Source: Dehalococcoidia bacterium
GTDB taxonomy: Bacteria; Chloroflexota; Dehalococcoidia; Plut-88900
Assembly: GCA_965207225.1 (NCBI GenBank)
Contig: CBDBLV010000004.1
Location: 839,397 to 903,396 of the forward strand
Direction: 5' to 3'
DNA: 64,000 nucleotides
Shown: positions 23,812 through 42,967 of the stretch, in pieces
Position numbering within the stretch: the first letter of the stretch is position 1
Layout: each line of letters opens with the position of its first letter
The notes under the pieces: model-generated
What the model was told of the DNA's origin: nothing
The model's input: only the letters and a program-made list of their open reading frames with translations
Database searches by the model: none
Program-made: the position numbers and the translations under genes

Positions 23812-24016
23812 GTCGCTTCCTCCTGAAATGAAGAAGCGGGACGGCCCCCGTGTCGGAGACAGTCCCGCGTGGTTCCACGTCCCGGTGGTCGGGACTGTCT
23901 GTTTGGGTGGTGTAGTTGCTATTGTTGCCGGGTGTGATCCCGATTTCGGGCAAAGAAGAAGGGCCGCCCCCCGCGATGGCGACGACCCTTGAATTGAGAT
24001 GGGTAGTGGAGCCGGC

Positions 24017-24525: not shown

Positions 24526-25159
24526 TCGTTACCTCCTTGTCGAAGCTGATTGCCGTTGACTTCCGTGAATCCGTGTGCCGTTCCGAAGACGCCCGCCGTC
24601 CGAATCCGCGACGGACAGCGGGGTGAGAGAAGACGCAGCCTGCCCACGGGTCACATCGTTGGGAAGGGACCTGCCGGGGAGTCGCCGAGTGGGGTGTGCG
24701 ACCGACCTCCTGCGGATCGACCACAGGACGGCGCGGTGGGAGGAACGCGGCTCGCCCGGGGTGAGATGCATCCGGGGAAAGCCGTGAAGACGCGAGGCGT
24801 CCGGCCTGCGAGTGGCAGACGGGCGTGTGCGGAAGCTGCGGTCAGGCCGCGTATCAGCCGCGCCGCAGGCGTGTAGAATCGGTAGAAGCGTCGGCTGCGC
24901 TTCAACCAGCGTGTCCCCGGCTTTCGAGGCGGTGTCGGAGGAGCGGAGCTCGACCCCTAGACCGCGTCACGCAGCGGGAAAGCGTTCGTCCCTCGTGGAA
25001 CTCCGTCGGGAGAGCGGGGCTCGATCCGTCAGGTCGCTCCGGGTCAGGGACTGACCCTCCAGTTTTCTCTGGCATGAAACACTGGAAAAAGCCAGAAACT
25101 GAGTCGATTATCGCCCGAACGGATGCGCGATGGAAGCCTTTCGACTGGCAATCAGGCCT

Positions 25160-25561
25160 TCACGCCGGATTCGCTTGCGCCGGGTTAGCTCCTTCGTAGC
25201 TCCGACATGGCTGTGATGTGGCAGACGATGGAACCGCACCTACTTCCTCCACAATCCGAAGGTCAGAACGCGCCGCAGCCATCGCCTCAGCAGCGTCCAT
25301 CTTCGGTTCTCCAGCGACCGCCGCCTTGGACCCATCCTCGGCTTCGATCATGTCCCGCAGCGGCGCCATGAGCCGCCCGTCGTCAAGGCTGTCCAGGCTC
25401 CGGCCAGAATATGGGCGCCACTCATGCCCGCGCGGTCCGGAGCTCGGAAGATCCATGAACGGTCTTGGGAACCCGGCGCCACCCATGCCCGCGCGGTCCG
25501 GAGCGCCCACCGGCGCTCTGTCCACTTTCGTAGCTGAATCCATATCAATGGAGTGGGTCAT
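25160..25561 (-). pseudogene. Remnant paralog of the 25969-26814 family
   Basis: LDDGRLMAPLRDMIEAE..SKAA resembles LSDASLLDMLDSLVDDRGRVAAA. Confidence 0.35.
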
Positions 25562-25968
25562 GCCTGTAGGTGGAGACGTCTCAGGATGTCGAGACTCGCT
25601 GGGAAGATGATGTGCCGATGGGCCAGGTCAGGCGGTTCACGTAGACGGGGGATGTCCGCTGTCATCTCCGCGGTTCAGGCAGCCGGATGGGTCGCCAGGG
25701 CATGGAACGGATGGCTGAAGACGCTGGAGCGCCATACACGCCAGAGGGCGCGCAGACGATGCGAGCGCCTCGGGCGCCTTCGCGCCATGGAAGCGCAGCG
25801 CCTCGCCCTGCGTGCGCCTATGACTGTTGCCCTCCCGGCCGTAGGTGCAATTGGTCCCTGTGATGGGGACGATTCGGTGATCGTCGCCCCCGACGGCTTG
25901 ATGTCCTTCTCCGCCGGGGGATCGGCGAGAAAAGCGCGCGATTCCTTATCCCGGGCACACGCCGGCGG

Positions 25969-26814
25969 CTACTTCCACCAAATGCCTAGGGTGAGCATTC
26001 GTCGCAGGAGGCGCAGCCGCCTCACTCCAGCCAACTCCCTCCGGGCCTGCGCCAGCGCCTCACGTCGCCAGCGCAGATGGTCCTCCCTGCGCGAAGCGTC
26101 CAGAGGCGTCGCCTCCGGAGGCAGGGCCAGGCGGAAGTCTCCGATCATGGCGATCTCCAGCTCCCACCGGCGCGCCGCAGCCTCCGCCCGATCAACGCGG
26201 TTGGCCTCAGCCCCAGTCCCGCTCCGCAGTTCCCGCCACTCGGCCACCAGCGCCGCGGCCGGGCCGAAGGCATGCTCCTCGTCGGGCCGCTCCTCAAGCG
26301 TGACCACGCCCGCGTCGGGAAGTCCGTGATCCCGTTGCGGGGGCCGCCACTCCTCGCTCTGTCCACAGTCGGCCTGGGAGGCATCGGCTTCGGTCTGTTG
26401 CCGGTCCTCGTCCTCGGGCGCGCCTGCCCGTCGTTCCAACCGCGTCGATCGCTCTGCCTGGGATTCGATGACTTCCCGCAGTTCTTCCTCCAAAGCCGCC
26501 ACCCTTCGCTCCAGCGACACAACCCGCTCCGCAATGTCGCTGGCGCCTTCATCGTCCGGATCATCGCCGTCGCCAGCGACCACGTCCCTGTACACTTCCA
26601 GCGCCCTTCGCATACGCGGAGACACCAGCCGCGAGTCGTGGCAGATCGCCAGCGTGCGGTAGTTCACCCCCAGCGCCTCTGCCGCGGCGACCCTGCCCCG
26701 GTCATCGACCAGAGAGTCCAGCATGTCCAATAGGGATGCGTCCGACAGTGGGACATTCACCCCGTCGCCGGAGCCGTTCGCCCCGTCCGCGACAGGCTCA
26801 TCATGGTCAGTCAT
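25969..26814 (-). CDS. Conserved hypothetical protein (HTH-like N-terminus, coiled coil), module A
   Basis: Paralog of 40539-41414; AAAEALGVNYRT; GGAGG RBS. Confidence 0.8.
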   Translation of the reverse strand: MTDHDEPVADGANGSGDGVNVPLSDASLLDMLDSLVDDRGRVAAAEALGVNYRTLAICHDSRLVSPRMRRALEVYRDVVAGDGDDPDDEGASDIAERVVSLERRVAALEEELREVIESQAERSTRLERRAGAPEDEDRQQTEADASQADCGQSEEWRPPQRDHGLPDAGVVTLEERPDEEHAFGPAAALVAEWRELRSGTGAEANRVDRAEAAARRWELEIAMIGDFRLALPPEATPLDASRREDHLRWRREALAQARRELAGVRRLRLLRRMLTLGIWWK

Positions 26815-26957
26815 CGCACCCTCCGCGTCTCAGAAAACTGCAATAACCGCAATACAATAAGTACAATATATCCGACACGGACCCGCAGTAAAATCGCTTG
26901 CGGGATTTTCCTTCAGGCCTCCCTGATTCCCCTTCATTCAGGTACGATTCTCATCCC

Positions 26958-27050
26958 GATTGTACTCTACAATGTATTTCGATTCTCCTTACAACCCTCA
27001 TTGGGCGAAAACCGCCCCTGAGCGATTGCAGTCTGACGCGTCAGCCCCCC
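26958..27050. other. Conserved intergenic block (candidate oriT), module A
   Basis: Matches the reverse complement of 40301-40395; palindrome CTGACGCGTCAG. Confidence 0.45.
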
Positions 27051-27267
27051 GATGGCCCGGCGGCAGCAGGCCCCCCGGCCCGTTGCCGGTCAACCGTTCT
27101 TGCGGGTTGCGTCAATGGATTTCGCCGGTCCGACTCCTTGTCTGACTGTGGATTCCGGCTGCATGGACGCGACGACGCGCAATTGACGCGACAGTCAGAT
27201 CCGTCGGTCTATCTCATCGTCCGCCCGCTGAGTCGCGCTTGCGGTTTTTGGGTGGCTCCGCCATAAT

Positions 27268-27281
27268 AGAACATATGTATT
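27268..27281 (+). promoter_or_regulatory. Possible LexA (GAAC-N4-GTTC-type) box next to -10 element
   Basis: CATAAT-AGAACATATGTATT upstream of the coupling-protein gene; equivalent site at 40192-40205. Confidence 0.4.
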
Positions 27282-27346
27282 ACCATCAGGTCGCGGCGGG
27301 AGTCATCATTCAGAGGACAGAGCCGGGCGTCAGAGGAGGTTCCACC

Positions 27347-29959
27347 ATGAGATTCAACCCTATAGCCGGACTGTTCAAGGGCGAAGAGAAACCCGCCACC
27401 AGGCTGATGAGCGTCACGCCGCCGCGCTCAGGGGAGCGCACCATGCTGGGTGTGGAGAACCTGCTGAGCTCGATCGCCATACCGGAGCCCTTCTCGCTTG
27501 AGATAGTGGGAGACGGCGGCGGGGTCAGCCTGCTGGCCCGCTGCCGTGACGGCTCCTTCGTTCGCCAGCAGGTGGGCGGTCGATACCCGCAGGCCACTGT
27601 GAACGAGCTCTCCGCCGAGGACGACCCTCTGAGGCTGTCCGAGGGGGAGCGGGCGTGGTCGATGGACCTGCGGCTCGATGGGCCGGAGTACCTGCCGCTG
27701 CGCAGCTTCCGGGACGACGACCTGCTCGACCCCGGCTCGGATCCCCTGATCTCGGTCATCGGCTCGCTGTCGGATCTGGAGGAGGGAGAGCGGCTGGTGG
27801 CCCGGCTGCGTGTGCTCTCGCTTGGGCCGGACTGGTCCAGCGCCCACCAGGAGAAGGCCAACTCCAGGCCCGCGTACGACCCGAACGCGTCCGCATCCAG
27901 CGCCCAAGGCGACGCGCAGGTCAACCGCAGAACCATGGTCCACTTTGCGATGCTGGCGCTGCTGGCCTTGCCGGCGCTGAAGGCATACTTGTGGATACAG
28001 GCCGGCGAGACGTGGAAGGCTGTACTGCTGGGACTGGGAGTGATGTCCCTCGCTGCCCTGGCGGGCTGGGGATGGTGGCGCTTCAAGAAGTGGCGCTCCG
28101 GGGGCAAGTACCGGGACCCTCTGATGATCAAGGAGAAGGTCTCCAAACTCGCCTACGAGGCGCAGCTGGAGGTTACGGCCGTCCTGTCTGAGCACGGCGC
28201 CGAGGCTCGCGCGAAGGAGTTGCTGCGGAACGTCGCCTCGGCCTACGGCCACTACAACAACCCGGCAGGCGCCAGCTTCAGGGCCACCAAGGTCCGGCCT
28301 TCGGTTCCAGACACCGAGCCGTCGCCTCCCGTCAGAGGACTGTTCCAGAGCCGGGACGTGCTGGGGGTCAGGGAGCTGGCGGCTCTGTGGCACCCGCTTG
28401 GGGCCGGAGACCAGCTGCCCATGGTGGCGCGCAGCGGCGCCAGGGCGCTGTTCCCGTCGTCCGGGAACAACCCGGGCGGCGCCTACGTGGGAGACACGGT
28501 TGTGGGCAGGCCGAGGAAGGTCCACTTCCCAGCCGACGCGATGGGCCGCCACCACCTGTACGTGGCCCGCACCCGCATGGGCAAGTCCACGCTGATGCGC
28601 CACCTGGTCGTCCACAAGATGCGGGAGAAGGCGGCGGGCCGCAACGACGACGCCATAGTGGTCGTCGATCCCCACGACGACCTGGTGAAGTCCCTGCTGG
28701 AGCACGTGCCGGAGGAGATCGCCGACCAGGTATATCTCATCGACCTTGCCGACGACGAACGCTCGCCCGGCGTCAACCTGCTGGACGCCCGGATCTTCCC
28801 GGACAGGGACCGCACGACCGACTCGGTGGTGCGCATCTCCAGGGGGCTGTGGGACCAGTGGGGACCCAGGATGCAGTCCATCCTGGAGCACACGATGAAG
28901 AGCCTGCACGAGTACAACGCTCACCCCGACACGCGGGAGGAGGAGCAATGCACCATCCTGGACGGGCTGCGGCTTCTGTCCGATCTGGAGTACCGCGGCC
29001 GGATTCTCAGGCGCGTGTCCGACCCGTACATCCTGGGCTGGTGGGCCAGGGACTTCCGCAGCTGGACGCGGACTTTGAGGGCCGACGCGGTCGCCCCGGT
29101 CCAGACCAGACTCGCCTACTACGCGTCGTCGAAGAAGGCAAGGGCCATACTGGGCCAGCGCCGATCCACCCTGGACATGCGGGAGGCGATCGCCGGGGGC
29201 GGCATTCTGCTGGTCGCCACGTCGCAGGCCGTAGCGGGGCGGGACGTGTCCGCGCTGGTGGGAGCGTCGCTGCTCAACCTGACCGACGCGGTGATCAGGG
29301 AGCAGGGCAGGCTGTCGCCGGAACGGAGGCGCGGCGCGCTTGTGGTGGTGGACGAGATGCAGTCCATTCCCGGGGTGGACTACGAGTCGATGCTTTCCGA
29401 GCTTGGAAAGTTCGGGGCCAGCTTCATCCTGGCCACCCAGAGCCTGGCGAGGCTTGCGGAGCTGTCTCCCACCATGCGGGACACGCTGCTTGCCAACGTC
29501 GGGTGCCTCGCGGTGTTCCAGGTGGCGGCGTCCGACGCCCGGCAGCTCATAGGGGAACTGGACAGGGACCGGTTGGACGAGGAGGACCTGGTGTCGCTGC
29601 CGGCGCACCAGTGCTACGTGCGCGCCACGGTGGACGGCCTCAGGCAGCCCACCTACTCCTTGGGTGTGCGAAAGCCCGAGGAGGGGAGTCCGGAAGCTGC
29701 GGAGCGGGTAATGGCCCGCGCCGAGGCGTACACCACTCCGGTGGAGGCAATCGCCTCCCAGGACCCCGAGATCAAGAGAATGGCGCAGGAGTTTCGGGAG
29801 GAGCTGGAACGGGAGGAGGAAGGAAAGCGAGAAGGAACCCCGCCGCCGCCCGCTGCACGCAACGGAACGACGGCCCGGCCCGGTGGAAGGAAGAGAGTGC
29901 GCACGCGGCGCAAGGGCGGCAGGCCGGACGGCGCCGGCGGCCCGGCAGGGGCTGCATGA
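27347..29959 (+). CDS. VirD4/TraD-like type IV coupling ATPase, module A
   Basis: Two TM helices, Walker A ARTRMGKST, VVDPHDD, Walker B VVVDEMQ, LATQS; GGAGG RBS. Confidence 0.82.
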   Translation: MRFNPIAGLFKGEEKPATRLMSVTPPRSGERTMLGVENLLSSIAIPEPFSLEIVGDGGGVSLLARCRDGSFVRQQVGGRYPQATVNELSAEDDPLRLSEGERAWSMDLRLDGPEYLPLRSFRDDDLLDPGSDPLISVIGSLSDLEEGERLVARLRVLSLGPDWSSAHQEKANSRPAYDPNASASSAQGDAQVNRRTMVHFAMLALLALPALKAYLWIQAGETWKAVLLGLGVMSLAALAGWGWWRFKKWRSGGKYRDPLMIKEKVSKLAYEAQLEVTAVLSEHGAEARAKELLRNVASAYGHYNNPAGASFRATKVRPSVPDTEPSPPVRGLFQSRDVLGVRELAALWHPLGAGDQLPMVARSGARALFPSSGNNPGGAYVGDTVVGRPRKVHFPADAMGRHHLYVARTRMGKSTLMRHLVVHKMREKAAGRNDDAIVVVDPHDDLVKSLLEHVPEEIADQVYLIDLADDERSPGVNLLDARIFPDRDRTTDSVVRISRGLWDQWGPRMQSILEHTMKSLHEYNAHPDTREEEQCTILDGLRLLSDLEYRGRILRRVSDPYILGWWARDFRSWTRTLRADAVAPVQTRLAYYASSKKARAILGQRRSTLDMREAIAGGGILLVATSQAVAGRDVSALVGASLLNLTDAVIREQGRLSPERRRGALVVVDEMQSIPGVDYESMLSELGKFGASFILATQSLARLAELSPTMRDTLLANVGCLAVFQVAASDARQLIGELDRDRLDEEDLVSLPAHQCYVRATVDGLRQPTYSLGVRKPEEGSPEAAERVMARAEAYTTPVEAIASQDPEIKRMAQEFREELEREEEGKREGTPPPPAARNGTTARPGGRKRVRTRRKGGRPDGAGGPAGAA

Positions 29960-31617
29960 GGGCGAAGGAGCGGGAGGGGCTGGCTCTGCGGACTCTGGCG
30001 GCGATGCCCTTCCTGGACCGTCTGGAGCTTGCCGCCGTCGCGGGCGTCCACGAGGAGGCGGCCCACATCGCTCTCGAGAGCCTTGAGCGAGCTGGGCTCG
30101 TCGACTTCATTCGCCACGCCTCTCCCCTGACGGCGACAACCAGACGCTGGTTCGCAACCACAATGGGGCTGAGGCTCCTGGCCTCGGAGAACGGGACCGG
30201 CATCGACCGCCTGCTGCGCACGCATCCGGTATCGGCCCACTGGCGACGCATCCTGCTGGCGCGGCTGGACGCAGTGGCCGCGATCTACCGCTTGACGTCG
30301 GCGGTGGCGAATGCGGCCGGCCCTCCCCGATTCCGCTGGTACCGCGCCGCGCCGCTGGACGCCGCCATGCTGCTTCCTGACGGCAGGACCTTCGGCGTGA
30401 TCCGTCAGGGGCCGACCGCCGACCGAACCGCCTTCTCCGACCGTGCGCGCCGCCTACTGGACCCTGAGCGGTCCAGGCCCCGCGCCCTGCTTGCGCTCAT
30501 GCCCGATGGGGCGCGACTGCGCGAGGCGCGGCGGCTGTTCGCTCGTCATCCCGGCCAGGTGTACATGGCTCTTGAGCGAGATGCGGCCCGCCTGATGCCC
30601 GACGACAGGGTATGGCATGGAACGTCCGGTCCTGGGCCATTATCCCTCCGTGAGGCGTTCGCTCACCTCCGTCCGGGTGGAAGCATCCCCTGGGAGGCGC
30701 CGACATCGAGGCTGTCGCTGCCCGGTGACACCGACCTGCATGGGATTGAAGATGATGATGTCGCCGACCACCTGCTCCCCCTCACTCTCAAGCCCTCAGA
30801 GAAGCGGATGCTGGACTGCCTCGCCGACTGGCCCCTGGTTACGGTGGAAGACCTGGCGGGCATCCTCAGCCTGTCCGACTCCCGCGCGCGGCGGCTCGCC
30901 GCGCGCCTGAACGGGTTGGGACTGGTCGCGCAAGTCCGTCTTGCGAGCCGTCGCCGCTTCGCCCTCGGCGATAGGGGCCTAGCCCTTCTGGCACGCAGGG
31001 ACCGGGGCTCGGTCGGAGCTGCCCTGCGTCGCTGGAGCGTCGAGCCGAAGGACGACGAGGCTCTATCGTCATGGCGGGACGTTCCGGGCAGGCGCAGCCG
31101 TACCCTTGCCCGGACCATTGAGCACACACAGGCGGTGCACCGCTTCATGGCGACGCTGGCGAGGCAGGCGAAGGGAACGAAGGACCGCCGCGTTGAGCGG
31201 GTGTCGCCACCGCATCACGCCGCCCGGTACTTCCGACACGGAGGCGGCATGCGCTCCATCCACCCGGACGGCTTCGGGGTGGTGCATGCCAACGGACGCG
31301 CCTGGCCCTTCTTTCTGGAGTACGAGCGCAGAGCGGTGAATCCCTCCACCATGACCGCGCGGCTCGCGCCCTACCTGCGCTACTACTCCTCCAACCGGCC
31401 CCTGGAAGACCACGGGGAACGCCCCCTGGCGCTCATCGTATTCGATGACCCTCTGGCCGAGACCAACTTCCTCGGTGTTGCCCGCGGGGAGATGCGGCGC
31501 AACAAGGTCGAGCCGCCCCTCTGGGCATCCCATAGGGAAGCGATAGAGCGAGCGGGGCCGCTGGGCAAGGCGTGGCGCAGCCCGGAAGCAATGGAACCGA
31601 GCCGCGTCTTTGAGTGA
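29956..31617 (+). CDS. Replication-relaxation (Replic_Relax) family protein, module A
   Basis: ATGA overlap with coupling gene; wHTH, IEHT..VH, HPDG...FFLEYER PD-(D/E)xK-like motif. Confidence 0.72.
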   Translation: MRAKEREGLALRTLAAMPFLDRLELAAVAGVHEEAAHIALESLERAGLVDFIRHASPLTATTRRWFATTMGLRLLASENGTGIDRLLRTHPVSAHWRRILLARLDAVAAIYRLTSAVANAAGPPRFRWYRAAPLDAAMLLPDGRTFGVIRQGPTADRTAFSDRARRLLDPERSRPRALLALMPDGARLREARRLFARHPGQVYMALERDAARLMPDDRVWHGTSGPGPLSLREAFAHLRPGGSIPWEAPTSRLSLPGDTDLHGIEDDDVADHLLPLTLKPSEKRMLDCLADWPLVTVEDLAGILSLSDSRARRLAARLNGLGLVAQVRLASRRRFALGDRGLALLARRDRGSVGAALRRWSVEPKDDEALSSWRDVPGRRSRTLARTIEHTQAVHRFMATLARQAKGTKDRRVERVSPPHHAARYFRHGGGMRSIHPDGFGVVHANGRAWPFFLEYERRAVNPSTMTARLAPYLRYYSSNRPLEDHGERPLALIVFDDPLAETNFLGVARGEMRRNKVEPPLWASHREAIERAGPLGKAWRSPEAMEPSRVFE

Positions 31618-31708
31618 TTGCCGCGAGATGTCCTCGCGCAGATTCGATGGCGAGTTCGTTCTGCATATGGTATGATGCAATCAGAATGGAATTCATATGA
31701 GGTGAGAC

Positions 31709-31933
31709 ATGCGCATATCGGAACGCGGACAAATCACCATTCCCAAGCGGTTCAGGGACCGCTTCGGCATGAACAAGGACGTCGAGGTCGAAATCACGCC
31801 GACCGAACACGGCCTGCTAATACAGAAGCGGTCGGCGGCGCAACATCCGGTCGAGAGAGTCAGCGGGATTCTTGACGGCGTTGACGCCGCTTTCGACGTT
31901 GACCAGTACATGGAAGAGATCCGGGGAAGATGA
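31709..31933 (+). CDS. vapB: AbrB/MazE-type antitoxin
   Basis: MRISERGQITIPK..R...G. Confidence 0.8.
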   Translation: MRISERGQITIPKRFRDRFGMNKDVEVEITPTEHGLLIQKRSAAQHPVERVSGILDGVDAAFDVDQYMEEIRGR

Positions 31934-32328
31934 TCACGTCGGTCGATACCAGCGTCCTGCTGGATGTCTTCGCGTCCGGCTCACCGCACCACTCTCAATC
32001 GCAGGTGTGGCTCATCGACGCCTACGATAGAGGAGCCATCCTGGTCTGCGACGTCGTCTACGCGGAGCTTGTACCGGCTTTTGGCGACCGCTCCTCGCTG
32101 GACGGATCCCTGCGGGAGATCAATGCGGTGGTCTCTCCGATTGACACCGCTATCGCATATGAGGCTGGATTGCGCTGGGCGCGATACCGGCAGGCGGGAG
32201 GGCCGAGGGAACGCATCATCGCCGACTTCCTGATTGGCGCGCACGCCATAGCCAATGCGGACACCTTTCTGACCCGGGACCAGGGATTCTACTCCACCTA
32301 CTTTCCCGAGCTGCAAGAACAACAGTAA
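31930..32328 (+). CDS. vapC: PIN-domain toxin
   Basis: VDTSVLLD, YAEL, ADFLIGAHA, LTRD; ATGA overlap. Confidence 0.88.
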   Translation: MITSVDTSVLLDVFASGSPHHSQSQVWLIDAYDRGAILVCDVVYAELVPAFGDRSSLDGSLREINAVVSPIDTAIAYEAGLRWARYRQAGGPRERIIADFLIGAHAIANADTFLTRDQGFYSTYFPELQEQQ

Positions 32329-32374: not shown

Positions 32375-34039
32375 ATGAAGGAGAAGCGCCTACAGCCGCT
32401 CACACCGGCGGCGCTGTACGCCAGGGTATCCAGCGACCGGCAGGACGTGGACCTGTCCGTATCCGCACAGCTGAGGGCGCTCAAGGAGTACGCGAAGGCC
32501 AACGGTTATTCTGTGGCCCGCGAGTACGTGGACGAGGCCGAGAGCGGCCGCGTCGCAGATAGGCCGCAGTTCAGGGAGATGATCGAGGAGGGCAGCAAGC
32601 CCAAGGCCCCCTTCGAGGTCATCCTCGTCTGGAAATTCAGCCGCTTCACCAGGAAGCGCGAGCACGCCGTGGCCTTCAAGGCCCAGCTGCGGCGCAAGGG
32701 CATCCGCGTGGTCTCCATCACCGAGCAGGCAGAGGACAACGCCACCGGAAGGCTGCTCGAGGGCATCATAGAGAGCGTGGACGAATACTACTCGGAGAAT
32801 CTGGCGCAGGAGGTCGTCCGTGGCATGAGGGAGGCCGCTTCGAGAGGCTTCTTCCTCGGATCCAAAGCCCCCTTCGGCTACCGGAAGATCAAGGTCAGCG
32901 ACGGACCTAAGGAGCGTCCCTCGCTTGAGGTAGACCCTGCCACCGCTCCGGTGGTGAAGGAGATATTCGAGAAGTCCCTGCGTGGCAGCGGCCTCAAGGA
33001 GATGTGCAAGGAGCTGAACGACCGGGGCATCACCAACCGGGGCAAGCGTTGGTACAAGGGAACGCTCCACTACGTGCTGAGAAACGAGGCGTACACGGGA
33101 ACCGCTGTGTGGGGCAAGACGAGCAAGGGAGACAAGGCCCCGGATCCCGTGCGCGTGGAGGGAGCGTGGCCCGCGCTGGTGTCGAGGGATCTGTTCGACG
33201 ACGTTCAGCACGCGATGAGCGAGCGCGCCCCGAAGGTGCAGAGGCCCGGTAGGGTGGGGAGCAGGTACCTGCTGAGCGGACTGCTCAGGTGCGGTGTCTG
33301 CGGCAAGCCCTATCGCGCGCAGGGAGCCAAGAGCGGCCGGTTCGCATACTACATCTGCGGCACCCTGTTCACCGAAGGAGCGGGGACGTGCAGCGCCCGC
33401 TACCTGAGCGCCCCGAAGGTCGAGGACTTCATCGTCGACAAGATCAGGGAGCGCATCCTCAACGAGGAGACTATCGTTGAACTGGTTTCGCTGGTGGCGG
33501 AGGAGGTCGACGCGATTGCCGGTGAGATGTCCGGCAGGTTGGAGGTAATCGAGGCGGAGCTGGAGGACGTGAGGAAGCGGCTGGAGAAGCTCTACGAGGC
33601 CATCGAGACGAGCGATCTGACCCTGGAGGTCCTATCGCCCCGCATCTTCTCTCTAAGGCACCGCGAGGAGCAGCTGGAGTCTGCGAGAGACGACGCGGAG
33701 CGCCAGCTTGAGCGGCGCAGGGTGGAGCTTCCCACAACCGACGTGATCAGAGAATACGTTGCAGACTTCCGGGAGTTCCTGAAGGAAGGGACGTTCCCCG
33801 AGCGCAAGGCGCTCATCCGCAACTTCGTGGAGGGCATCGAGGTGGTCGGAGACGAGGCGACGCTGACGTACACGGTCCCCATGCCTAGCGACGGCGTGAC
33901 GAAGGAATCGGCCTCGGTTCTTGATTTTGTCAAGTCCGGCCCACCAGACTTGACGTTAGACAGAACCGGGGCGTGGAGAGCCACATCCTGGGCGTCCCTT
34001 CCGCCTATGGGAGCGTCCTCCGGCATAGGTATGGAATAG
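32375..34039 (+). CDS. Large serine recombinase A
   Basis: YARVSS catalytic Ser, SRFTR, recombinase domain APFGY, Zn ribbon LLSGLLRCGVCG, coiled coil. Confidence 0.95.
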   Translation: MKEKRLQPLTPAALYARVSSDRQDVDLSVSAQLRALKEYAKANGYSVAREYVDEAESGRVADRPQFREMIEEGSKPKAPFEVILVWKFSRFTRKREHAVAFKAQLRRKGIRVVSITEQAEDNATGRLLEGIIESVDEYYSENLAQEVVRGMREAASRGFFLGSKAPFGYRKIKVSDGPKERPSLEVDPATAPVVKEIFEKSLRGSGLKEMCKELNDRGITNRGKRWYKGTLHYVLRNEAYTGTAVWGKTSKGDKAPDPVRVEGAWPALVSRDLFDDVQHAMSERAPKVQRPGRVGSRYLLSGLLRCGVCGKPYRAQGAKSGRFAYYICGTLFTEGAGTCSARYLSAPKVEDFIVDKIRERILNEETIVELVSLVAEEVDAIAGEMSGRLEVIEAELEDVRKRLEKLYEAIETSDLTLEVLSPRIFSLRHREEQLESARDDAERQLERRRVELPTTDVIREYVADFREFLKEGTFPERKALIRNFVEGIEVVGDEATLTYTVPMPSDGVTKESASVLDFVKSGPPDLTLDRTGAWRATSWASLPPMGASSGIGME

Positions 34040-35547
34040 CGCAGCAGGGCGTTGCCAGGCATGACCACGATCTCCTTGACGAAGGACTCTATGAAGGCTC
34101 TGCGCTCGGTCAGTTCACTTTCGTTGAGGAACACGCTCATCTCCTGTGCGTAGGCCGTGATGGTTTCCACGTCGTCCAGTACCTCCCTGCGCTGGGAGAG
34201 CATCGTTTTGGCCTCGGCAGCCGACGCCTCCAGCTTCTCCTGCCGTTCCCGGTGGTCTCTGATGCGAGGCTTGAAGTCCTCGATGTCCAGGTCGGTGGTC
34301 TCCGCCAGGTCGTAGAGACGTTCCAGCCTGCGTTTCACGTCGGCAAGCTCCGACTCGATGGTCTCCAGCCTCTGCCGCTGCTCCTTGGCGATGCCGTCCA
34401 TCTCCTCGTCCACCAGCTTCACCAGTTCCCGGATGTTGGACTCTGTGAGCGCGTTCTCCCTGATCTTTCCCACCACCATCTCCTCGAATCGCCGGGCGTT
34501 GAGCCTGGGTGTATCGCAGGCGTCCTTTCCCCGCTTCATGATGGACTGGCAGACGTAGTAGGCGTACCTGCCGCTCTTGGCGTCCTGTCCGGAGAGCGCC
34601 CTGTTGCACGACCTGCATTTGACCAGCCCGCTGAGCAGGTAGGAGCTTCCCACCCTGCGGGGATGAGTTCTCCTGGGCGCCCTTGAGCGCAGTCGTTTGT
34701 TGACTCTCTCGAACTGGGCCTTGGAGATGATTCCGGGGAACGCCTTGTCGACTCTGACCGGCTCGGCCTTGTCCTTGCCGCCGACGCCCCAGAGAAGCGT
34801 TCCGGTGTAGACTTCGTTGCGGAGGATGATGTGGACGCCGTTCTTGGACCAGAGCCTGCCGGTGGGATTGGCGATGCCCTCGGCGTTGAGGGTCTGGGTG
34901 ATGTTCAGGATGCCCCTGCCCGACTCGGCCATGGAGAAGATGCGCCGCACCACGGGAGCGGTGGCGGGATCGGGTTCCAGCGTGGGGCGTTTCTTGGGTC
35001 CGTCCTGCGCCATGCGCTTGTTGTAGCCGTAGGGCGCCCTGCTGGCGACCCAGAAGCCGCGGGAAGCCGCCTCCCGCATTCCCCGGCGAACCTCCTCGGC
35101 AAGATTCTCGCTGTAGAACTCATCAACGCTCTCGATGATGGCCTCCATGAGCCTGCCGGTGGGGGAGTCGTCGGCATGCTCGGTGATGGAGACGACGCGG
35201 ACGCCCTTGCGTCTGAGCATGGACTTGAAGGCGACGGCGTGTTCGCGCTTTCTGGTGAAGCGACTGAATTTCCAGACCAATATCTCCGCAAAAGGGGCCT
35301 CCGGCTTGGATGCCTCGTCCAGCATCTTCTGGAACTGCGGCCTGTCGGCTACGCGTCCGCTCTCGGCCTCGTCGATGTACTCGCGGGCTACCGTGTAGCC
35401 GTTCTTGTCCGCGTAGTCCCGGAGCGCCCGCATCTGGGCGGCCACCGACAGGTCCACGTCCTGTCTATCGCTGGACACTCTGGCGTAGAGGGCCACGGGG
35501 GTGCGTTCATTGGTCTGATTCATGGATGCGTCCTCCTCTCGGTTCAT
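33592..35547 (-). CDS. Large serine recombinase B (3' read-through across att junction)
   Basis: Same motifs; homology to recombinase C ends at VKSGGP (~33938). Confidence 0.95.
   Translation of the reverse strand: MNREEDASMNQTNERTPVALYARVSSDRQDVDLSVAAQMRALRDYADKNGYTVAREYIDEAESGRVADRPQFQKMLDEASKPEAPFAEILVWKFSRFTRKREHAVAFKSMLRRKGVRVVSITEHADDSPTGRLMEAIIESVDEFYSENLAEEVRRGMREAASRGFWVASRAPYGYNKRMAQDGPKKRPTLEPDPATAPVVRRIFSMAESGRGILNITQTLNAEGIANPTGRLWSKNGVHIILRNEVYTGTLLWGVGGKDKAEPVRVDKAFPGIISKAQFERVNKRLRSRAPRRTHPRRVGSSYLLSGLVKCRSCNRALSGQDAKSGRYAYYVCQSIMKRGKDACDTPRLNARRFEEMVVGKIRENALTESNIRELVKLVDEEMDGIAKEQRQRLETIESELADVKRRLERLYDLAETTDLDIEDFKPRIRDHRERQEKLEASAAEAKTMLSQRREVLDDVETITAYAQEMSVFLNESELTERRAFIESFVKEIVVMPGNALLRYSIPMPEDAPIGGRDAQDVALHAPVLSNVKSGGPDLTKSRTEADSFVTPSLGMGTVYVSVASSPTTSMPSTKLRMSALRSGNVPSFRNSRKSATYSLITSVVGSSTLRRSSWRSASSLADSSCSSRCLREKMRGDRTSRVRSLVSMAS
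33915..33968. other. att-like junction between recombinases A and B
   Basis: CGGTTCT-n7-GTCAAGTC-CGGCCCACCA-GACTTGAC-n7-AGAACCG symmetry; core GGCCCACCA recurs at 53338. Confidence 0.75.
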
Positions 35548-35747
35548 TGCCTTTCGTTCCGGTGTGAAAGCCGTCGCGTCCGTTCCTGCATGAGCCAGTC
35601 GCGCTCCTCCATGTACAGGCGGATGGCCTGCCTGAGCACCTCGCTCACGGTGCGCTGCTCCTCCCCTGCCATCTGCTGGAGATTCTGGGCCATGTCCCGG
35701 GGCAGGGAGAAGCTCACGGACACGGTGTTTCTGGAGTTGGGTTGCAT
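35544..35747 (-). CDS. CopG/ribbon-helix-helix protein
   Basis: VSFSLP..M...L...A..E.RTVSEVLRQAIRLY. Confidence 0.78.
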   Translation of the reverse strand: MQPNSRNTVSVSFSLPRDMAQNLQQMAGEEQRTVSEVLRQAIRLYMEERDWLMQERTRRLSHRNERQ

Positions 35748-35862
35748 CCTCACGCCTTTCGATTGCACAGATAGCATTGAGTCTTACTATACACTATCGG
35801 ACACCCGCCCTTCAATCACCCGATGGCCCCCGATGGCCGTGGACAGGGCCGGACTCAAGGCT

Positions 35863-37521
35863 TCAAACAAAGGCCCGCCTGGGTTCCATGACGTCTGGAT
35901 TGCGCCAGGCTTTGCCCAGCGGCCCGACCTTCTCCAGCCTCTCCCTATGGGACACCCACAGGGGCGGCTTCACGCCGCGGCGTTCCATCTCCACGCGGGC
36001 GACGCCGAGGAAGTTGGCCTCGGCCAGGGGATCGTCGAAGACGATGAGCGCGAGTGGCCGGTGTCCATGGTCTTCCAGGGGCCGGTTGGAGGAGTAGTAG
36101 CGCAGGTAGGGAGCGAGCCGGGCGGCCATGGTGGACGGGTTCACCGCCCGGCGCTCGTACTCCAGGAAGAAGGGCATGGTCCGGCTGCCGGTCTGCGCCA
36201 CGCCGAAGCCGTCGGGGTGGACGGAGCGGAAACTGCCGCCGTACCGGAAGTGCCGGGTGGCGTGATGGGGCGGCGACACCGCAACGACGCGATAGCCTTT
36301 CGTCCCTTTCGCCTGCCGCGTCAGCGCCGCCATGAACCGGTGCGCCGCCTCGGTGTGGTCGATGGCGCGGGCCAGGGGACGCGCCCGCGCCCCCGGCAGG
36401 TCTCGCCAGGAGGACGGAGGTTGTCCGTCCACCGGCTCGACGCTCCAGCGGCGGACGGCAGACCCCACGGAAGCCCGGTCTCTGCGGGCCAGGAAGGACA
36501 GCCCTCCATCGCTGAGAGCGAAGCGGCGCTGGCCTGCAAGATTGACCGGAGCGACCAAATCCAACCTGTTCAGACGGGCGGCAAGCCGCCACGCGCGGGA
36601 GTCGGAGAGGCCAAGGATGCCCGACAGGTCTTCGACGGTGATCAGAGGCCAGTCGGCGAGGCAGTCGAGCATCCGCTTCTCGGCGGGCTTGAGGAGGACG
36701 GGGAGCAGGTGGTCGGCGGCGTCATCGTCAATCCCGCGCAACTCGGCCTCTTCGGGCAGGGATTGTCTCGAAGTCGGCCTCTCCCAGGGAATCGCGCCGC
36801 CCTGCCGCAGGTGGGCGAATATCTCGCCAAGGGACAGGAGCGAAGGAGCGGACGTTGCGCGCCACACCCTGTCGTCGTCCGACAGGCTGGCCGCGTCCCG
36901 CTCGAGAGCCAGGTACGCCGGTCCGGGATAGGGAGCCAACAGCCGCCGCGCCTGGCGCAGCCTCGCCTCGTCGGGCGCGAGGGCGAGCAGGGCGCGGGGC
37001 CTGGATAGCTCCGGGTCAAGGAGGCTGCGCGCCCGGTCGGAGAACGCCGTACGGTCCGCGGTGGCGCCCTGCCGGATCACGCCGACGGTCCTGCCGTCAG
37101 GGAGGGTCATGGCGGCGTCCAGCGGAGCGGCGCGATACCACCGGAAGCGGGGAGGGCCGACCGCATCCGCCACCGCCGAGGCCAGTCGGTAGACGACGGC
37201 CACGGCGTCCAGGCGCGCCAGCAGGATGCGTTGCCAGTGGGCCGATACCGGATGCGTCAGCAGCAGGCGGTCGATGCCGGTTCGGTTCTCAGAAGCCAGG
37301 AATCGCAGTCCCTCCCTGGTGGCGTACCAACGTCTGGTGGGGTCGGTCAGGGGAGAGGCGTGGCGTATGGAGCCCGCCAACCCCTTCCGCCGCAGCTGGC
37401 CCAAGACGTGGCGGGCCGTGCTCTCGGCCATGTCCGATACGGAGGCCAACTCCAGGTAGTCGAGGAAGGGCATGGCCGCCAGGGTCCACAGGCTCAGCCG
37501 CTCCCGCTCTCCGGGTCTCAT
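35863..37521 (-). CDS. Replic_Relax family protein, module B
   Basis: Paralog of 29956-31617 (HPDG, FFLEYERRA). Confidence 0.72.
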   Translation of the reverse strand: MRPGERERLSLWTLAAMPFLDYLELASVSDMAESTARHVLGQLRRKGLAGSIRHASPLTDPTRRWYATREGLRFLASENRTGIDRLLLTHPVSAHWQRILLARLDAVAVVYRLASAVADAVGPPRFRWYRAAPLDAAMTLPDGRTVGVIRQGATADRTAFSDRARSLLDPELSRPRALLALAPDEARLRQARRLLAPYPGPAYLALERDAASLSDDDRVWRATSAPSLLSLGEIFAHLRQGGAIPWERPTSRQSLPEEAELRGIDDDAADHLLPVLLKPAEKRMLDCLADWPLITVEDLSGILGLSDSRAWRLAARLNRLDLVAPVNLAGQRRFALSDGGLSFLARRDRASVGSAVRRWSVEPVDGQPPSSWRDLPGARARPLARAIDHTEAAHRFMAALTRQAKGTKGYRVVAVSPPHHATRHFRYGGSFRSVHPDGFGVAQTGSRTMPFFLEYERRAVNPSTMAARLAPYLRYYSSNRPLEDHGHRPLALIVFDDPLAEANFLGVARVEMERRGVKPPLWVSHRERLEKVGPLGKAWRNPDVMEPRRAFV

Positions 37522-40154
37522 TCACCCTCCGCCGCCCTGCCGCCGGATGCGTTGAGGTCGTTCTGGTTGTCGTTCCTGCGCCGCCTGCGGGGTCTCTTGT
37601 TCTTCTTGGGCTTCGGCTGGTTCGCCGTCCCGTTGCCCGCGCTGGGCGGCGGCGGATTCCCACCCGACTGCTGTTGCCTCTGCTCCTCCTCCCGCTCCAG
37701 CTCCTCACGATACTGCTCCGCCATCTTCTCGACCTCGGCGTCCTGGGAGGCGATGGCCTCCGCCGTGGCGGTGTAGCTCTCGGCCCGCGCCTTCACCCGC
37801 TCCTCGGCGGCGGCGCTCCCCGCGTCGGGCGCCCGCACTCCCAGGGAGTAGGTGGGCTGCCTCAGCCCGTCCACCGTGGCGCGCACGTAGCACTGGTGCG
37901 CCGGCAGCGACACCAGGTCCTCCTCGTCCAACCTGTCCCGGTCCAGCTCGCCTATGAGCTGCCGGGCGTCGGACGCCGCCACCTGGAACACCGCCAGGCA
38001 TCCCACGTTGGCAAGGAGCGTGTCCTGCATGGTGAGGGACAGCTCCTTGAGCCGCGCCAGGCTCTGGGTGGCCAGGATGAACGACGCTCCGAACTTGCCC
38101 AGCTCAGACAACATGCTCTCGTAGTCCACGCCGGGCATGGACTGCATCTCGTCAACCACCACCAGCGCGCCCCGTCTCTCGTTCGGCGAGAGCCGTCCCT
38201 GCTCCCGGATCACCGCGTCGGTCAGGTTGAGCAGCGACCCTCCCACCAGGGCGGACACGTCCCGCCCAGCCGCCGACTGGGAGGTGGCCGCCAGCAGCAC
38301 CCCGCCCTCGGCGATCACCCGCCGCAGGTCAAGGGTGGAGCGGCGCTGCCCTAGGATGGCCCTAGCCTTCTTCGACGTGGCGTAGTAGGCCAGGCGGGTC
38401 TGCACCGGGGCGATGGCGTCGGCCTTCAGGGTGCGGCTCCAGTTGCGGAAGTCCCTGGCCCACCAGCCCAGGATATACGGATCGGACACGCGCCTGAGAA
38501 TCCGGCCGCGGTACTCCAGGTCCGACAGCAGCCGCAGCCCGTCCAGGATGGTGCATTGCTCGTCCTCCTTCGTGTCCGGGTGGGTGTTGTACTCGTGCAG
38601 GCTCTTGACCGTCTGCTCCAGGATGGACTGCATCCTCGGCCCCCATACCTGGCTCCACAGCCCCCTGGCGATGCGCGCCACCGAGTCCGCCGTGCGGTCC
38701 CGGTCGGGGAAGATGCGGGCGTCCAGCAGGTTGACGCCGGGCGAGCGTTCGTCGTCGGCAAGGTCGATGAGGTACGTCCTGTCCACGATCTCCTCGGGCA
38801 CGCGCCTCAGCAGGGAGTGCGCCAGGTCGTCATGGGGATCGACGACCACGATGGCGTCGTCGTTGCGGCCCGCCGCCTTCTCCCGCATCTTGTGGACGAC
38901 CAGGTGATGCATGAGCGTGGATTTGCCCATGCGGGTGCGGGCCACGTAGAGATGGTGGCGTCCCATCGCGTCGGCGGGGAAGCGCACCTTCCTCGGCTTG
39001 CCGACCACCGTGTCCCCCACGTAGGCCCCGGCGGAGCCGTTGCGGGACGAGGGAAACAGCGCCTTCGCCCCGGCGCGGGCCATCATGGGCAGCGCGTCCC
39101 CAGCCCCCAGCGGATGCCACAGGGAGGCAAGCTCCCGCACCCCCAGCACGTTGCGGCACGCCAGCAGGCTCCGCGCCGGCGGCAGCGGCTCGGTCACGGG
39201 AATCGCCGGACGAACCTTGGTCGCCCTAAAGCTGGCACCGGCCGGGTTGTTGTAGTGGCTGTAGGCCGCGGCCACGTTGCGCAGAAGCTCCCTGGCCCTG
39301 TTCTCGGCGCCGTGCTCGGACAGGATCGCCGTCACCTCCAGCTGGGCCTCGTAGGCGAGCTTGGAGACCTTCTCCTTGATCATCTGCGGGTCCTGGTACT
39401 TGCCCCCGGAACGCCACTGCTTGAAGCGCCACCAGGCCCAGCCCGCCAGGGCCGCCAGGGACGCCACGCCAAGACCCAGCAGGATCGCCTTCCAGGTCTC
39501 CCCGGCCTGTATCCACAAGTAGGCCATGAGCGCTGGCGGGACCAGCAACGCCAGGATGGTTATGGCAACCGCGTTAGTGCGGTCGATCCCGGGTTGGGCG
39601 CTGGAGGCGGAGGTGTTGGTGTCGTAGGCGGGCCTGGGGTTCGTCTTCTCCTGGTGGGCGGCGGACCAGTCCGAACCCAACGACGACAGCCGCAGCCGCG
39701 TCACCAGCCGCTCACCCTCCTCCAGGTCGGACAATGAGCCGATGACCGAGATGAGCGGGTCTGAGCCGGGGTCCAGCAGGTCGTCGTCCCCGTAGGGACG
39801 CAGGGGCAGGTACTCCGGCCCTTTGAGCCGCAGGTCCATCGACCACGCCCGCTCCCCCTCGGCCAGCCTGAGCGGGTCGTCCTCGGCGGAGACCTCGTTC
39901 ACCCTGGCCTGGGGATAGTGGGCTCCCACCTGCTGGCGCACGAAGGAGCCCTCCCGACAGCGGGCCAGCAACGTGACGCCGTCGGCGTCCCCGGCGATCT
40001 CCAACGAGAATGGTTCGGGGACGGCGATGGACTCCACCAGGTTCTGCACGCCCAGCATGGTGCGCTCCCCTGATCGGGGCGGCGTCACGGCCATCAGCTT
40101 GACGGCGGGCTTCTCCCCGCCCTTGAACAGCTTGGCTATCGGATTGAATTTCAT
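37518..40154 (-). CDS. VirD4/TraD-like coupling ATPase, module B
   Basis: Paralog of 27347-29959; AGGAGG RBS. Confidence 0.82.
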   Translation of the reverse strand: MKFNPIAKLFKGGEKPAVKLMAVTPPRSGERTMLGVQNLVESIAVPEPFSLEIAGDADGVTLLARCREGSFVRQQVGAHYPQARVNEVSAEDDPLRLAEGERAWSMDLRLKGPEYLPLRPYGDDDLLDPGSDPLISVIGSLSDLEEGERLVTRLRLSSLGSDWSAAHQEKTNPRPAYDTNTSASSAQPGIDRTNAVAITILALLVPPALMAYLWIQAGETWKAILLGLGVASLAALAGWAWWRFKQWRSGGKYQDPQMIKEKVSKLAYEAQLEVTAILSEHGAENRARELLRNVAAAYSHYNNPAGASFRATKVRPAIPVTEPLPPARSLLACRNVLGVRELASLWHPLGAGDALPMMARAGAKALFPSSRNGSAGAYVGDTVVGKPRKVRFPADAMGRHHLYVARTRMGKSTLMHHLVVHKMREKAAGRNDDAIVVVDPHDDLAHSLLRRVPEEIVDRTYLIDLADDERSPGVNLLDARIFPDRDRTADSVARIARGLWSQVWGPRMQSILEQTVKSLHEYNTHPDTKEDEQCTILDGLRLLSDLEYRGRILRRVSDPYILGWWARDFRNWSRTLKADAIAPVQTRLAYYATSKKARAILGQRRSTLDLRRVIAEGGVLLAATSQSAAGRDVSALVGGSLLNLTDAVIREQGRLSPNERRGALVVVDEMQSMPGVDYESMLSELGKFGASFILATQSLARLKELSLTMQDTLLANVGCLAVFQVAASDARQLIGELDRDRLDEEDLVSLPAHQCYVRATVDGLRQPTYSLGVRAPDAGSAAAEERVKARAESYTATAEAIASQDAEVEKMAEQYREELEREEEQRQQQSGGNPPPPSAGNGTANQPKPKKNKRPRRRRRNDNQNDLNASGGRAAEGE

Positions 40155-41550: not shown

Positions 41551-42967
41551 GAGCTAATATCAGAAGTTGTGGAAATTGGAAATGCGTGAGTAAGAGAAAG
41601 GGCGTATCCTTCCAGGCGACTAAACCGTCAATGAGACGAGGAACTGGAGGAATACGCCGTGCGAGAAGTATACCAGACCGAAGGGAATGAGAACGTCGTC
41701 GGAGACACGCTGGAAGATATGTTCAGGGAAGGAGCGAGAAGGATGCTGGCAGCGGCCCTTGAGGAGGAGGTCAGCGCCTTCCTTGGGAGGGACCGCTACG
41801 AACGGTCCGACGAGTTTCGCGGATACCGCAATGGCTACCACATGAGCCGTGAGTTGACGGTGGGCGTGTCTGCGGTCGAAGTGAAGGCGCCCAGGGTGTC
41901 GGACGTGCCACGGGAGGTGTCTGCGGATGGATACAGTTCGCAGATAGTCGGCAAGTACCAGCGCAGTTCCCGCCAGACCCAGGAGCTGTTTCGGAAGCTG
42001 TACATGGAGGGACTATCGACCGGGGACTTCGAGCCGGCGCTTCGGGAACTGGTGGGAGAGACGACGGCGCTTAGCGCAAACGCTATCGTGAGGTTGAAGA
42101 GTCGTTGGGAGGACGAGAATCGGGCGTGGCGCAGTCGCCGCCTCGACTCTCGCCGGTACGCATATATCTGGGCTGACGGGGTGTACCTGGGAGCCGGCGT
42201 GGATCGGGAGAAGACGGCGCTGCTGTGCGTGGTGGGAGCGAGTGAGGATGGGACCAAGGAGCTATTGGGAATGGAACTCGGCTATTAGGGAGAGCGCGGA
42301 GAGCTGGGCCGGCGCGCTGCGTGGGTTGAGAGACCGTGGGATGGATACGCCGCTGCTTGCGATTGGAGACGGGGCTCTGGGTCTGTGGTCGGCGCTCGAT
42401 GCGGTGTTCCCCACGACGGGGCGCCAGCGCTGCTGGAACCACCGTGCGCTGAACCTGGCGGCGCGGCTTCCGAAGTCGTTGCAGTCGTCAGCGAGACGCA
42501 GGCTGCGGGAGATCTCCCACGCTCCCACTCGAGCGGAGTGTGAGCGGCTTCGTGACGAGTACGTCTCAGAGCTGAGCGCCGAGGGGCGCACTGATGCCGC
42601 CGAGACGGTGGTCCGGGACTGGGACTCGTTCGTGAGCTTCTACGACTTTCCGACTGAGCATTGGATCGATCTGAGAACGACGAACCCTCTGGAGTCGGTG
42701 TTCAGCGCGGTCAGGCTGAGGACGGATGCCGCTCGTCGGATGAAGCGGCGGGACAGCGTGTTGTACCTGGTGTTCAAGGTGGTCAGCAGGCTGAGTGAGA
42801 GATGGAGACCGCTGTATGGAGGTAGAAACCTGATGAAGCTGCTGATGGATGGAGCGAAGTTCGAGGACGGGGTCCTAACCGAGTTGCCGATGAGCGCTGA
42901 GGAGGCAGTCGCAGCCTGATGAACTAAACCGCCTGGAAGGAATTTCCACAACTTTTGACACAAGCTC
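41551..42967 (+). mobile_element. IS256-family IS, transposase (41659-42919) frameshifted near 42280
   Basis: IRs GAGCTAATATCAGAAGTTGTGGAAATT / AATTTCCACAACTTTTGACACAAGCTC; YRNG, IWADG, GDG..G, QRCWNH, RTTNPLES. Confidence 0.88.

Follow-up and report, generated by a model that had tools for sequence, protein, structure and literature searches.

The closest described relatives of the system studied here are the ssrA islands of Dehalococcoides, in which, according to the published account, DsiB, a large serine recombinase (LSR) of ~540 aa, sits at the island edge and faces the end of a tRNA-like gene (PMC3146451). The same account describes the islands as tandemly stacked at one site, with divergent tails in the integrated state (PMC3146451, McMurdie et al. 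2011), and its authors raised the idea that the enzyme is complete, and fully functional, only on the circle, which they could not test (PMC3146451). In archaeal SSV-type 'suicidal' tyrosine integrases, the attachment (att) site lies inside the open reading frame (ORF), which is split into two inactive halves, an arrangement that a review describes as exclusive to archaea (PMC8371274). In the integration-dependent immunity of mycobacteriophages, attP occupies the 3’ part of the repressor gene, so that the products of the free and the integrated genome differ at the C-terminus and work as a switch; integration is by a tyrosine integrase, and the tail that it removes serves as a degradation tag (PMC3694055). 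As for targets, a review of integrative mobilizable elements (IMEs) assigns tRNA 3’ ends to tyrosine integrases and places serine-recombinase IMEs inside genes (PMC5704250), and serine integrases have been described as not targeting tRNA genes (PMC4383910). Here, we analysed a 64,000-nt stretch of a Dehalococcoidia bacterium (hereafter the window; G000:C4:839397-903396, in contig CBDBLV010000004.1 of GCA_965207225.1, a repeat-rich, metagenome-derived assembly of 4.03 Mb in 5 contigs), which carries three LSR genes, A, B and C, two of which converge on a shared 54-bp site. We describe the anatomy of this site, its recurrence, its tRNA targets and the coding-type conservation of the protein tail encoded beyond it, and argue that the splitting of the gene at this site may matter to the enzyme.

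By their domain set and serine motif, A, B and C are LSRs, predicted to recombine attP with attB. A domain search found Resolvase, Recombinase and Zn_ribbon_recom domains in each of them (PF00239 with E values of 1e-32 to 1e-34, and PF07508 and PF13408 in all three); A carries the motif ALYARVSSDRQ, and YARVSSDRQ is present in B too in the alignment, the shorter motif YARVSS being common to all three. An AlphaFold2 model of an A-type relative predicts long paired helices at residues 364-445, in the manner of a coiled-coil-type insert, and the best full-length relative of solved structure is the SPbeta integrase (E = 1e-11). The genes and the parts of the site are as follows.

32375..34039, + strand: LSR A gene as it stands, 554 aa, with the conserved protein end ...VKSGPP (33946)
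33592..35547, - strand: LSR B gene as it stands, 651 aa, with the conserved protein end ...VKSGGP (33937)
53331..54965, - strand: LSR C gene, 544 aa, terminating in GGPS and a stop
33915..33936, + strand: arm ‘beta’, 22 nt, the attachment-site half in the 3’ end of A, coding VLDFVKS
33937..33946, no strand: spacer CGGCCCACCA, 10 bp, a copy of the tRNA 3’ end, with the inferred crossover CC at 33941-33942
33947..33968, - strand: arm ‘alpha’, 22 nt, the attachment-site half in the 3’ end of B, coding VLSNVKS
33947..34039, + strand: tail of A from the junction, 30 codons plus stop, antisense to B and not the native tail
33592..33936, - strand: tail of B from the junction, 114 codons plus stop, antisense to A
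53337..53368, - strand: spacer (53337-53346) and alpha arm (53347-53368) of C
53187..53336, - strand: flank supplying the stop codon of C, a ~150-nt repeat and not a canonical far arm

A and B are convergent and share 448 bp (33592-34039), and neither has a stop ahead of the symmetric site (33915-33968; 54 bp), whose inverted-repeat arms match at 16/22 positions. The first-pass annotation had proposed that the two genes overlap across this site and read through into tails of about 30 and 115 aa, and this was borne out (30 and 114 aa). The same arms and core occur at ~50 junctions across the genome, showing that the 54-bp site did not arise by chance, and the beta arm terminates all 13 A-type copies of the genome. 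In 28/28 copies of the genome, the ORF passes through the core without a stop before it. C likewise crosses the core (GGCCCACCA at 53338-53346) and then terminates with GGT GGG CCT TCG TGA, as had been claimed and as we confirmed by reading the ORF. The accompanying claim that this stop comes from the far arm, the arm at the other end of the element, did not hold: the flank resembles no far arm of any element and has only three copies in the genome. These copies form a ~150-nt repeat of 76% identity (12691-12842 on the + strand, 51676-51827 and 53187-53338 on the - strand), one of which abuts the core at LSR C and provides its stop; the repeat has no Rfam match. We considered this repeat as the far arm of the elements and rejected it, since its three copies are confined to the window and are unlike true far arms.

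The orientation of the core separates the LSR genes of this family into two types. A-type genes terminate in the core in the tRNA sense (...GCCCACCA), and B/C-type genes read the same core antisense. Integration of a B/C-type element places its LSR gene beside the tRNA, convergent on it, and integration of an A-type element, using the same core in the opposite polarity, places the LSR gene at the tRNA-distal end, pointing outward in the direction of the tRNA. In 5/24 loci from relatives the A-type far arm lies directly against a tRNA gene (Val in three cases, Lys and Ile), which shows tRNA ends to be targets of A-type elements as well. Where a B element has an A element on its left, their opposite polarities bring the two LSR genes tail to tail, each running into the antisense of the other. 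Such tail-to-tail A/B junctions occur seven times in the genome, and a convergent LSR is found at 25/80 A-type loci of other genomes. The earlier suggestion that A is integrated in inverted orientation was not borne out, as its orientation is the usual polarity of the whole A clade.

A phylogenetic tree pairs the A clade (10 rows, support 100/100) with the B/C clade (17 rows, 100/100) as sisters, and a distant clade that is convergent on tRNAs branches off outside the two. This suggests that the A polarity is the derived one in this tree, which is rooted at the midpoint only. Altogether, ~50 junction cores were counted, and the spans from first to last core within each array sum to 0.70 Mb, or 17% of the genome, a crude figure that takes in some DNA between separate tRNAs. 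We consider it probable that the 54-bp site is the junction of two different integrative elements standing back to back in an accretion array, and that their LSR genes run into their own att sites, becoming whole only on the circle or next to an element of their own type. One locus is by nature a hybrid in its arm type and polarity: L086 (G000:C2:150888-152120) is an N-terminally truncated B/C-like LSR, 71% identical to C, that combines a B-type arm with the A-type core polarity and runs into an A-type far arm, giving it a canonical A-type tail.

A and B could instead be a convergent pair, similar to CcrAB, that flanks the attP of one element and is separated to its opposite ends on integration, and indeed the genome has many units of 28-36 kb with the appearance of tRNA-[<-B ... 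A->]. However, inside such units the far arms of a B and an A element meet head to head around the same core (the genome has six of these junctions), and on these grounds we rejected A and B as two ends of one element. In addition, A far arms lie directly at tRNAs in relatives, B/C elements occur without A (element C, of 26.7 kb, has a far arm of its own), and each type has its own near-palindromic attP, so that a single element is very improbable.

We judge it just as improbable that the junction is a misassembly of paralogous element ends. The assembly, with its few contigs and many repeats, invites this explanation, and a second copy matches element C at 100% identity over 10.66 kb. Against it, A, B and their paralogues are only 74-90% identical, making joining by error unlikely, and the same type of junction recurs in many other assemblies: of the 25 convergent loci noted above, 14 are in records titled ‘chromosome’ and several others are in short-read contigs.

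The copies of this family in the genome number 35 LSR genes or gene fragments, in two main clades that are ~55% identical. B/C-type genes are convergent on the 3’ ends of tRNA-Ile, Ala, Lys, Val-GAC and Met, and more distant family members on those of Val-TAC and Gln, for seven LSR/tRNA cases in all. The 3’ end of the B/C-type genes, ...TGGTGG..., is the reverse complement of the tRNA CCACCA; correspondingly, 6/11 tRNA genes ending in CCACCA are occupied, as compared with 1/38 of the others. LSRs that are 93-95% identical were found on four different tRNAs (Ala, Lys, Val and Met). Sampling across the class recovered a relative in 41/151 Dehalococcoidia genomes, and in 23/29 of the loci displayed from other genomes an LSR was convergent on a tRNA (Met, Ile, Ala, Glu, Gln, Lys, Val or Asn). 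The 10-bp spacer shared by all these elements copies the tRNA 3’ end, namely the end of the acceptor stem, the discriminator and CCA, and within any one type of element the 22-bp arms around it are near-palindromic.

The position of the cut can be approximated from how the spacer varies. Its four left bases move with the left arm (CGGC, CAGC, CAGT, AGGC or TCGC), and CCACCA is invariant. A right-hand junction in a distant genome has the sequence AGCTCC|ATTT, and the native tRNA-Ala there has no encoded CCA, which together point to an exchange at the CC that directly precedes the discriminator. The geometric centre of the site falls on this CC too, and we infer that the crossover dinucleotide is the CC at 33941-33942.

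Two further observations concern these targets. In a distant small genome (loci L176 and L177, G139:C1:1380000-1419999), the attP of the element gives a tRNA-Ala gene its CCA after integration. Separately, the motif RRRYTCGAAC, which mirrors the tRNA T-arm, occurs at a fixed distance of ~9 nt past the central CC in 17/77 A-type right flanks (L010, L011, L016, L018, L024, L025, L030, L034, L040, L043, L046, L048, L049, L050, L060, L063 and L078), and a flank of this kind together with a tRNA end would make a palindromic target. ARAGORN called no tRNA in these flanks, and the motif is absent 3’ of all 49 tRNA genes of the genome.

As none of the 28 genome copies has a stop ahead of the core, we read the LSR frame across the far arm of each element, as it would be joined on the circle, using only natural contiguous far-end junction sequence; this yielded 36 distinct far ends for the A clade and 32 for the B/C clade, after six of 38 rows were dropped as antisense of LSR genes. 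The tails of both clades are in frame with the LSR. The native end of the A clade reads PP-DL(T/I)KSRT-F-x-(L/I)-x-(F/L)-x-L-x-(L/V)-stop, with the stop at codon 19 in 30/36 far ends and TAG, TAA and TGA all in use. At codons 12, 14, 16 and 18 a T is kept at position 2 (entropy of 0.3-0.8 bit, as compared with 1.0-1.7 at positions 1 and 3); the codons in between are free, and past the stop the entropy rises to 1.9-2.0 bits. The native end of the B/C clade is GGP-xLTxxRT-(I/V)FE(L/M)W(L/M)G(x)L-stop, with the stop at codon 19 or 20 in 24/32 far ends; its Gly17 is spelled with all four codons, and Phe and Glu are each spelled with both of theirs. This codon-type variation, along with a stop in all spellings, supports that the protein is conserved here rather than a DNA site. 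A C-type native end is, for example, ...GGPILTVDRTVFELRLGSL followed by a stop, and the A protein of the window would end in ...PPDLIKSRTFELRIVLEL and a stop on the circle.

The last 17-19 codons of the gene would therefore lie past attP, 7-8 of them in the far arm and the rest coding a conserved hydrophobic peptide and the stop. In an integrated element these codons lie at the opposite end from the rest of the gene, which is therefore whole only when the element is excised as a circle or has a neighbour of its own type, and integration would exchange the native C-terminus for whatever sequence lies across the junction. In the integrated state, the tail segment is separate from any long ORF in nearly all cases. 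This bears out, in part, the proposal of the first-pass annotation that integration rewrites the integrase C-terminus: the att core is inside the ORF, and a conserved native tail past the far arm is replaced. The part of the proposal that took GGPS and a stop for the end restored by excision was not supported, as GGPS is read from a flank that has no far arm, and native ends differ from it.

Two far ends from a distant small genome yield similar short hydrophobic tails. Among the best 120 database relatives, 10 carry the canonical A-type tail and 7 the B/C-type tail, 93 have some other tail, 3 end at PP and 7 are without the motif. The AlphaFold2 model of a natural full-length A-type enzyme (L054, from a 37-row alignment) has a mean predicted local distance difference test score (pLDDT) of 79 and is good to about residue 515.

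Alternatively, the conserved sequence past the far arm could be an independent micro-ORF starting at a TTG in the arm, or a DNA site, and not the end of the recombinase. A TTG is present in the arm of 32/36 A-type and 27/32 B/C-type far ends, and the detachment of the segment from long ORFs after integration agrees with such a reading. Yet the tails are canonical where the TTG has been replaced (L096 and L102 among A-type far ends; L144, L145, L146, L163 and L167 among B/C-type ones), and this persistence argues against a separate micro-ORF. Moreover, the segment is in the LSR frame in both clades, next to LSR ORFs that consistently lack a stop of their own, and neither a T at the second position of every second codon nor the three spellings of the stop is like a DNA site. 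We consider this alternative unlikely, and take the segment as the native end of the recombinase.

What the peptide does is a matter on which we can offer a tentative proposal. It ends in x-(L/I/V)-x-(F/L)-x-L-x-(L/V)-COOH in the A clade and in (I/V)FE(L/M)W(L/M)G(x)L-COOH in the B/C clade. The DinB protein of the genome has QLPLF near its C-terminus. The C-terminal pattern x-hydrophobic-x-L-x-hydrophobic presumably resembles the hexapeptide class of sliding-clamp-binding motifs, and is put forward as a candidate only. It is possible, though we would not presume it, that these Dehalococcoidia make two integrase isoforms set by the state of the element: a full-length form with the C-terminal peptide, produced from the circle only, and a form with an arbitrary tail when integrated. 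The peptide might then be a docking motif, with the sliding clamp as candidate partner, or else a degradation signal or a brake, and could subject integration and excision to state-dependent control. Combined with the mimicry of the tRNA T-arm and CCA end by the core and arms, this might allow one lineage to use many tRNA genes in either polarity.

Several observations weigh against this account of the junction and its tails. No canonical stop was found in 6/36 A-type and 8/32 B/C-type far ends, and the far ends are related by descent, so that their counts are not independent events. Residues 516-537 of the AlphaFold2 model, which include the tail, have a pLDDT below 50, in an alignment made mostly of junction tails. 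The window holds no canonical far arm for B, a search of it for a B/C-type tail-coding end gave 0 matches, and the B-to-C junction is non-canonical. The tRNA of the array was not found, the tRNA scan of the window being empty. Finally, Logan contigs of public runs contain skips from 33946 to 53353 and from 33946 to 53527, with only 25-26 letters on the shorter side; both skips fit the paralogous A/C junction at C5:2032371, and there is a loose end at 53338 with an A-type arm. Among the joints of these assembled contigs (contigs, not reads), none was of the circle type.

Past the conserved GGP/PP end, the tails that the LSR genes acquire at junctions vary from 1 to 114 aa across the 28 genome copies, with one 533-aa fusion, in which an A-type LSR (G000:C5:1988772-1990340 and downstream) stays in frame for 533 more codons into the neighbouring gene (543 aa from the VL motif). 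The 30- and 114-aa tails of the window are, as far as their sequence tells, by-products of the A/B junction. The antisense overlap that the first-pass annotation attributed to integration does exist and recurs, but it carries no sign of selection: the antisense frame is open over 108 codons in 25/27 A-type copies that face an LSR and in 54/61 that do not, and long antisense ORFs are common in this G+C-rich DNA. That the junction tails are functional, or that the convergent overlap is a selected antisense control between recombinase genes, is therefore improbable, even if the overlap is seen at all of the tail-to-tail junctions counted above and the 114-aa tail of B is 78-89% identical between copies. 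The latter identity is that of the A coding sequence read backwards, the openness of the antisense frame is the same whether or not an LSR reads into it, and tails vary freely with their context. For genome annotation, long convergent overlapping recombinase ORFs of this kind are thus junction artefacts, and the true end of the gene is tens of kilobases off.

The near end of element A is at the spacer (33937-33946) and its far end at G000:C4:821835, 17.5 kb to the left of window base 1, so that the window contains the final 33.9 kb of an element of 51.5 kb. The parts of the three elements around the LSR genes are listed below.

1..27238, + strand: cargo of element A; the window does not reach the far arm and native tail-coding end of this element
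27239..32328, + strand: transfer module of element A, with coupling protein (27239-29959) and Replic_Relax relaxase-like gene (~29956-31617)
31709..31933 and 31930..32328, + strand: continuation of the element A module, a MazE-like gene and a PIN gene
35544..40154, - strand: element B module, with ribbon-helix-helix (RHH) gene (35544-35777), relaxase-like gene (35863-37521) and coupling protein (37518-40154)
41659..42919, + strand: Mutator-family transposase, two ORFs
54968..64000, - strand: remainder of conjugative element C, with helix-turn-helix (HTH) gene, relaxase-like gene (56730-58391), coupling protein (58388-60919), VirB4-like ATPase (60935-63229) and pilin-like gene

By gene content, A, B and C are integrative conjugative elements (ICEs) or mobilizable ones: C carries Replic_Relax, TrwB/TraG-type, VirB4-like and pilin-like genes, and A and B a relaxase-like gene and a coupling protein only. 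Element B is damaged; its likeness to sibling B elements ends at 41409, just ahead of the Mutator-family transposase. Element C, the far arm of which equals its LSR arm at 21/22 positions with the same spacer between, runs off the contig end, and an identical copy elsewhere in the genome has both ends. The final 10.66 kb of the window (53341-64000) are 100% identical to C4:725035-735694 in the opposite orientation, and the contig probably ends at element C because of this unresolved repeat.

A ~15-kb imperfect inverted repeat is centred on the A/B junction (25974-33036 and 34868-41409, 74-86% complementary in pieces), and is made up of the transfer and integrase modules of A and B, which are homologous and stand face to face. 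The first-pass annotation had suggested that this segment may be invertible. The repeat is real, but a lone site at its centre of symmetry cannot invert anything, its arms are only 74-86% identical, and the only other core with arms in the window, at 53338, has the direct orientation: both cores read GGCCCACCA on the + strand and are direct repeats, leaving no second core in inverted orientation. Invertibility is, accordingly, hardly conceivable. The coupling-protein and relaxase module of element A (27343-31603) has ~80% DNA identity to the module of B-type elements, and other A-type elements have a relaxase-like gene with a protein identity of only 30-32%, a pattern that suggests that the integrase module was exchanged between the two types of element.

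The cargo and surroundings hold further genes and repeats. The cargo of element A includes a type I restriction-modification operon (hsdR, hsdS and hsdM; 12945-22129), within which lie a ThsB-like TIR gene, an 8xMP membrane protein, a DUF2806 gene, and HigB with a Phd/YefM-type antitoxin. Two neighbouring DndB-like genes, one of them fused to a Swt1-like HEPN domain, are at 1457-4282, and ~680-nt inverted repeats (4632-5312 and 10281-10942; 76-88% identical) bracket 5 kb in which a signal peptidase II gene and fragments of transposases are found. The gene at 22714-23811 encodes a protein of 365 aa that has four HTH domains of the Cro/C1 type, and a 219-nt DNA repeat lies inside this gene. A GmrSD-like nuclease stands beside a RiboL-PSP HEPN gene (43026-44653), and a 42-nt inverted repeat surrounds the pair (42931-42972 and 44671-44712). 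At 46343-48631 is the gene of a protein of 762 aa that combines leucine-rich repeats with a trypsin-like domain; within the gene are tandem repeats of 72 nt (47031-47390) and 108 nt (46490-46687). Neither the Rfam scan nor the tRNA scan gave a hit in the window.

Serine integrases are of major importance as tools of genome engineering, and the usual picture of them is of a self-contained gene next to attP. Here, a whole LSR family targets the conserved 3’ end of many tRNA genes, and the meaning of the overlap between dsiB and att, which the description of the ssrA islands left open in 2011 (PMC3146451), now has a defined 10-residue peptide that can be added or removed. If this peptide alters activity, stability or direction, it would represent a new form of direction control, residing in the state of the element rather than in a separate directionality factor.

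Compared by their published description, the DsiB islands are the closest precedent, sharing the class of bacteria, the stacking of islands and the LSR at the edge. An integrase ORF that overlaps the att site without a stop of its own is a DsiB trait and is present in all the genome copies followed here. The targets differ, being the ssrA tmRNA gene for DsiB, as far as that description goes, and many tRNA 3’ ends here; the single tmRNA gene of the genome (C1 198772-199125) has no adjacent LSR. The genes upstream of the three LSRs (RHH, HTH and toxin-antitoxin genes, relaxase-like genes and coupling protein) are not the integration module described for the ssrA islands. No second resolvase-family gene resembling DsiA, as described there, was present among the neighbouring ORFs scanned, and RecF-like, ParB-like and Mom-like genes were not searched for specifically. 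Relative to what the account of the ssrA islands reports, there are here a second clade of reversed polarity and a tail conserved across attP, as against divergent integrated tails.

As in the SSV-type integrases, att lies within the integrase ORF and the remainder of the gene is at the other end of the element, as seen in the far ends with a canonical stop (30/36 A, 24/32 B/C). Unlike them, this is a bacterial serine integrase in which only 17-19 codons are detached, and the predicted domains, up to residue ~515 in the model, stay in one piece. The mycobacteriophage switch likewise has attP in the 3’ part of an ORF, and here that gene is the integrase itself. Stacking and hybrid junctions are also features of the ICE/IME accretion arrays at tRNA genes that the review of such elements describes (PMC5704250). 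Our search of the literature, supplements aside, returned nothing on tRNA-targeting serine integrases in Dehalococcoidia, on pairs of LSR genes that converge and overlap, or on a serine integrase whose gene is completed across attP.

In comparison with the classical serine integrases (A118/LI, phiC31, Bxb1 and SPbeta), the domain set is the same, and their att sites are ~50 bp with imperfect inverted repeats and a central dinucleotide. The 22-bp arms and 10-bp spacer found at the ~50 junctions agree with this, the dinucleotide here being an inferred one. We know of no att site inside the gene of a classical serine integrase. A GAACC motif is ~6 bp closer to the centre in the half-site of the tRNA than it is in the arms of the elements; by analogy, this is reminiscent of the 5-bp shift between attP and attB reported for the zinc-ribbon motif of serine integrases (PMC3783163). 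Thus, what is of a known kind at this locus is the presence of LSR elements at the ends of tRNA-like genes in Dehalococcoidia, and what is new is a conserved C-terminal peptide whose presence would depend on the state of the element.

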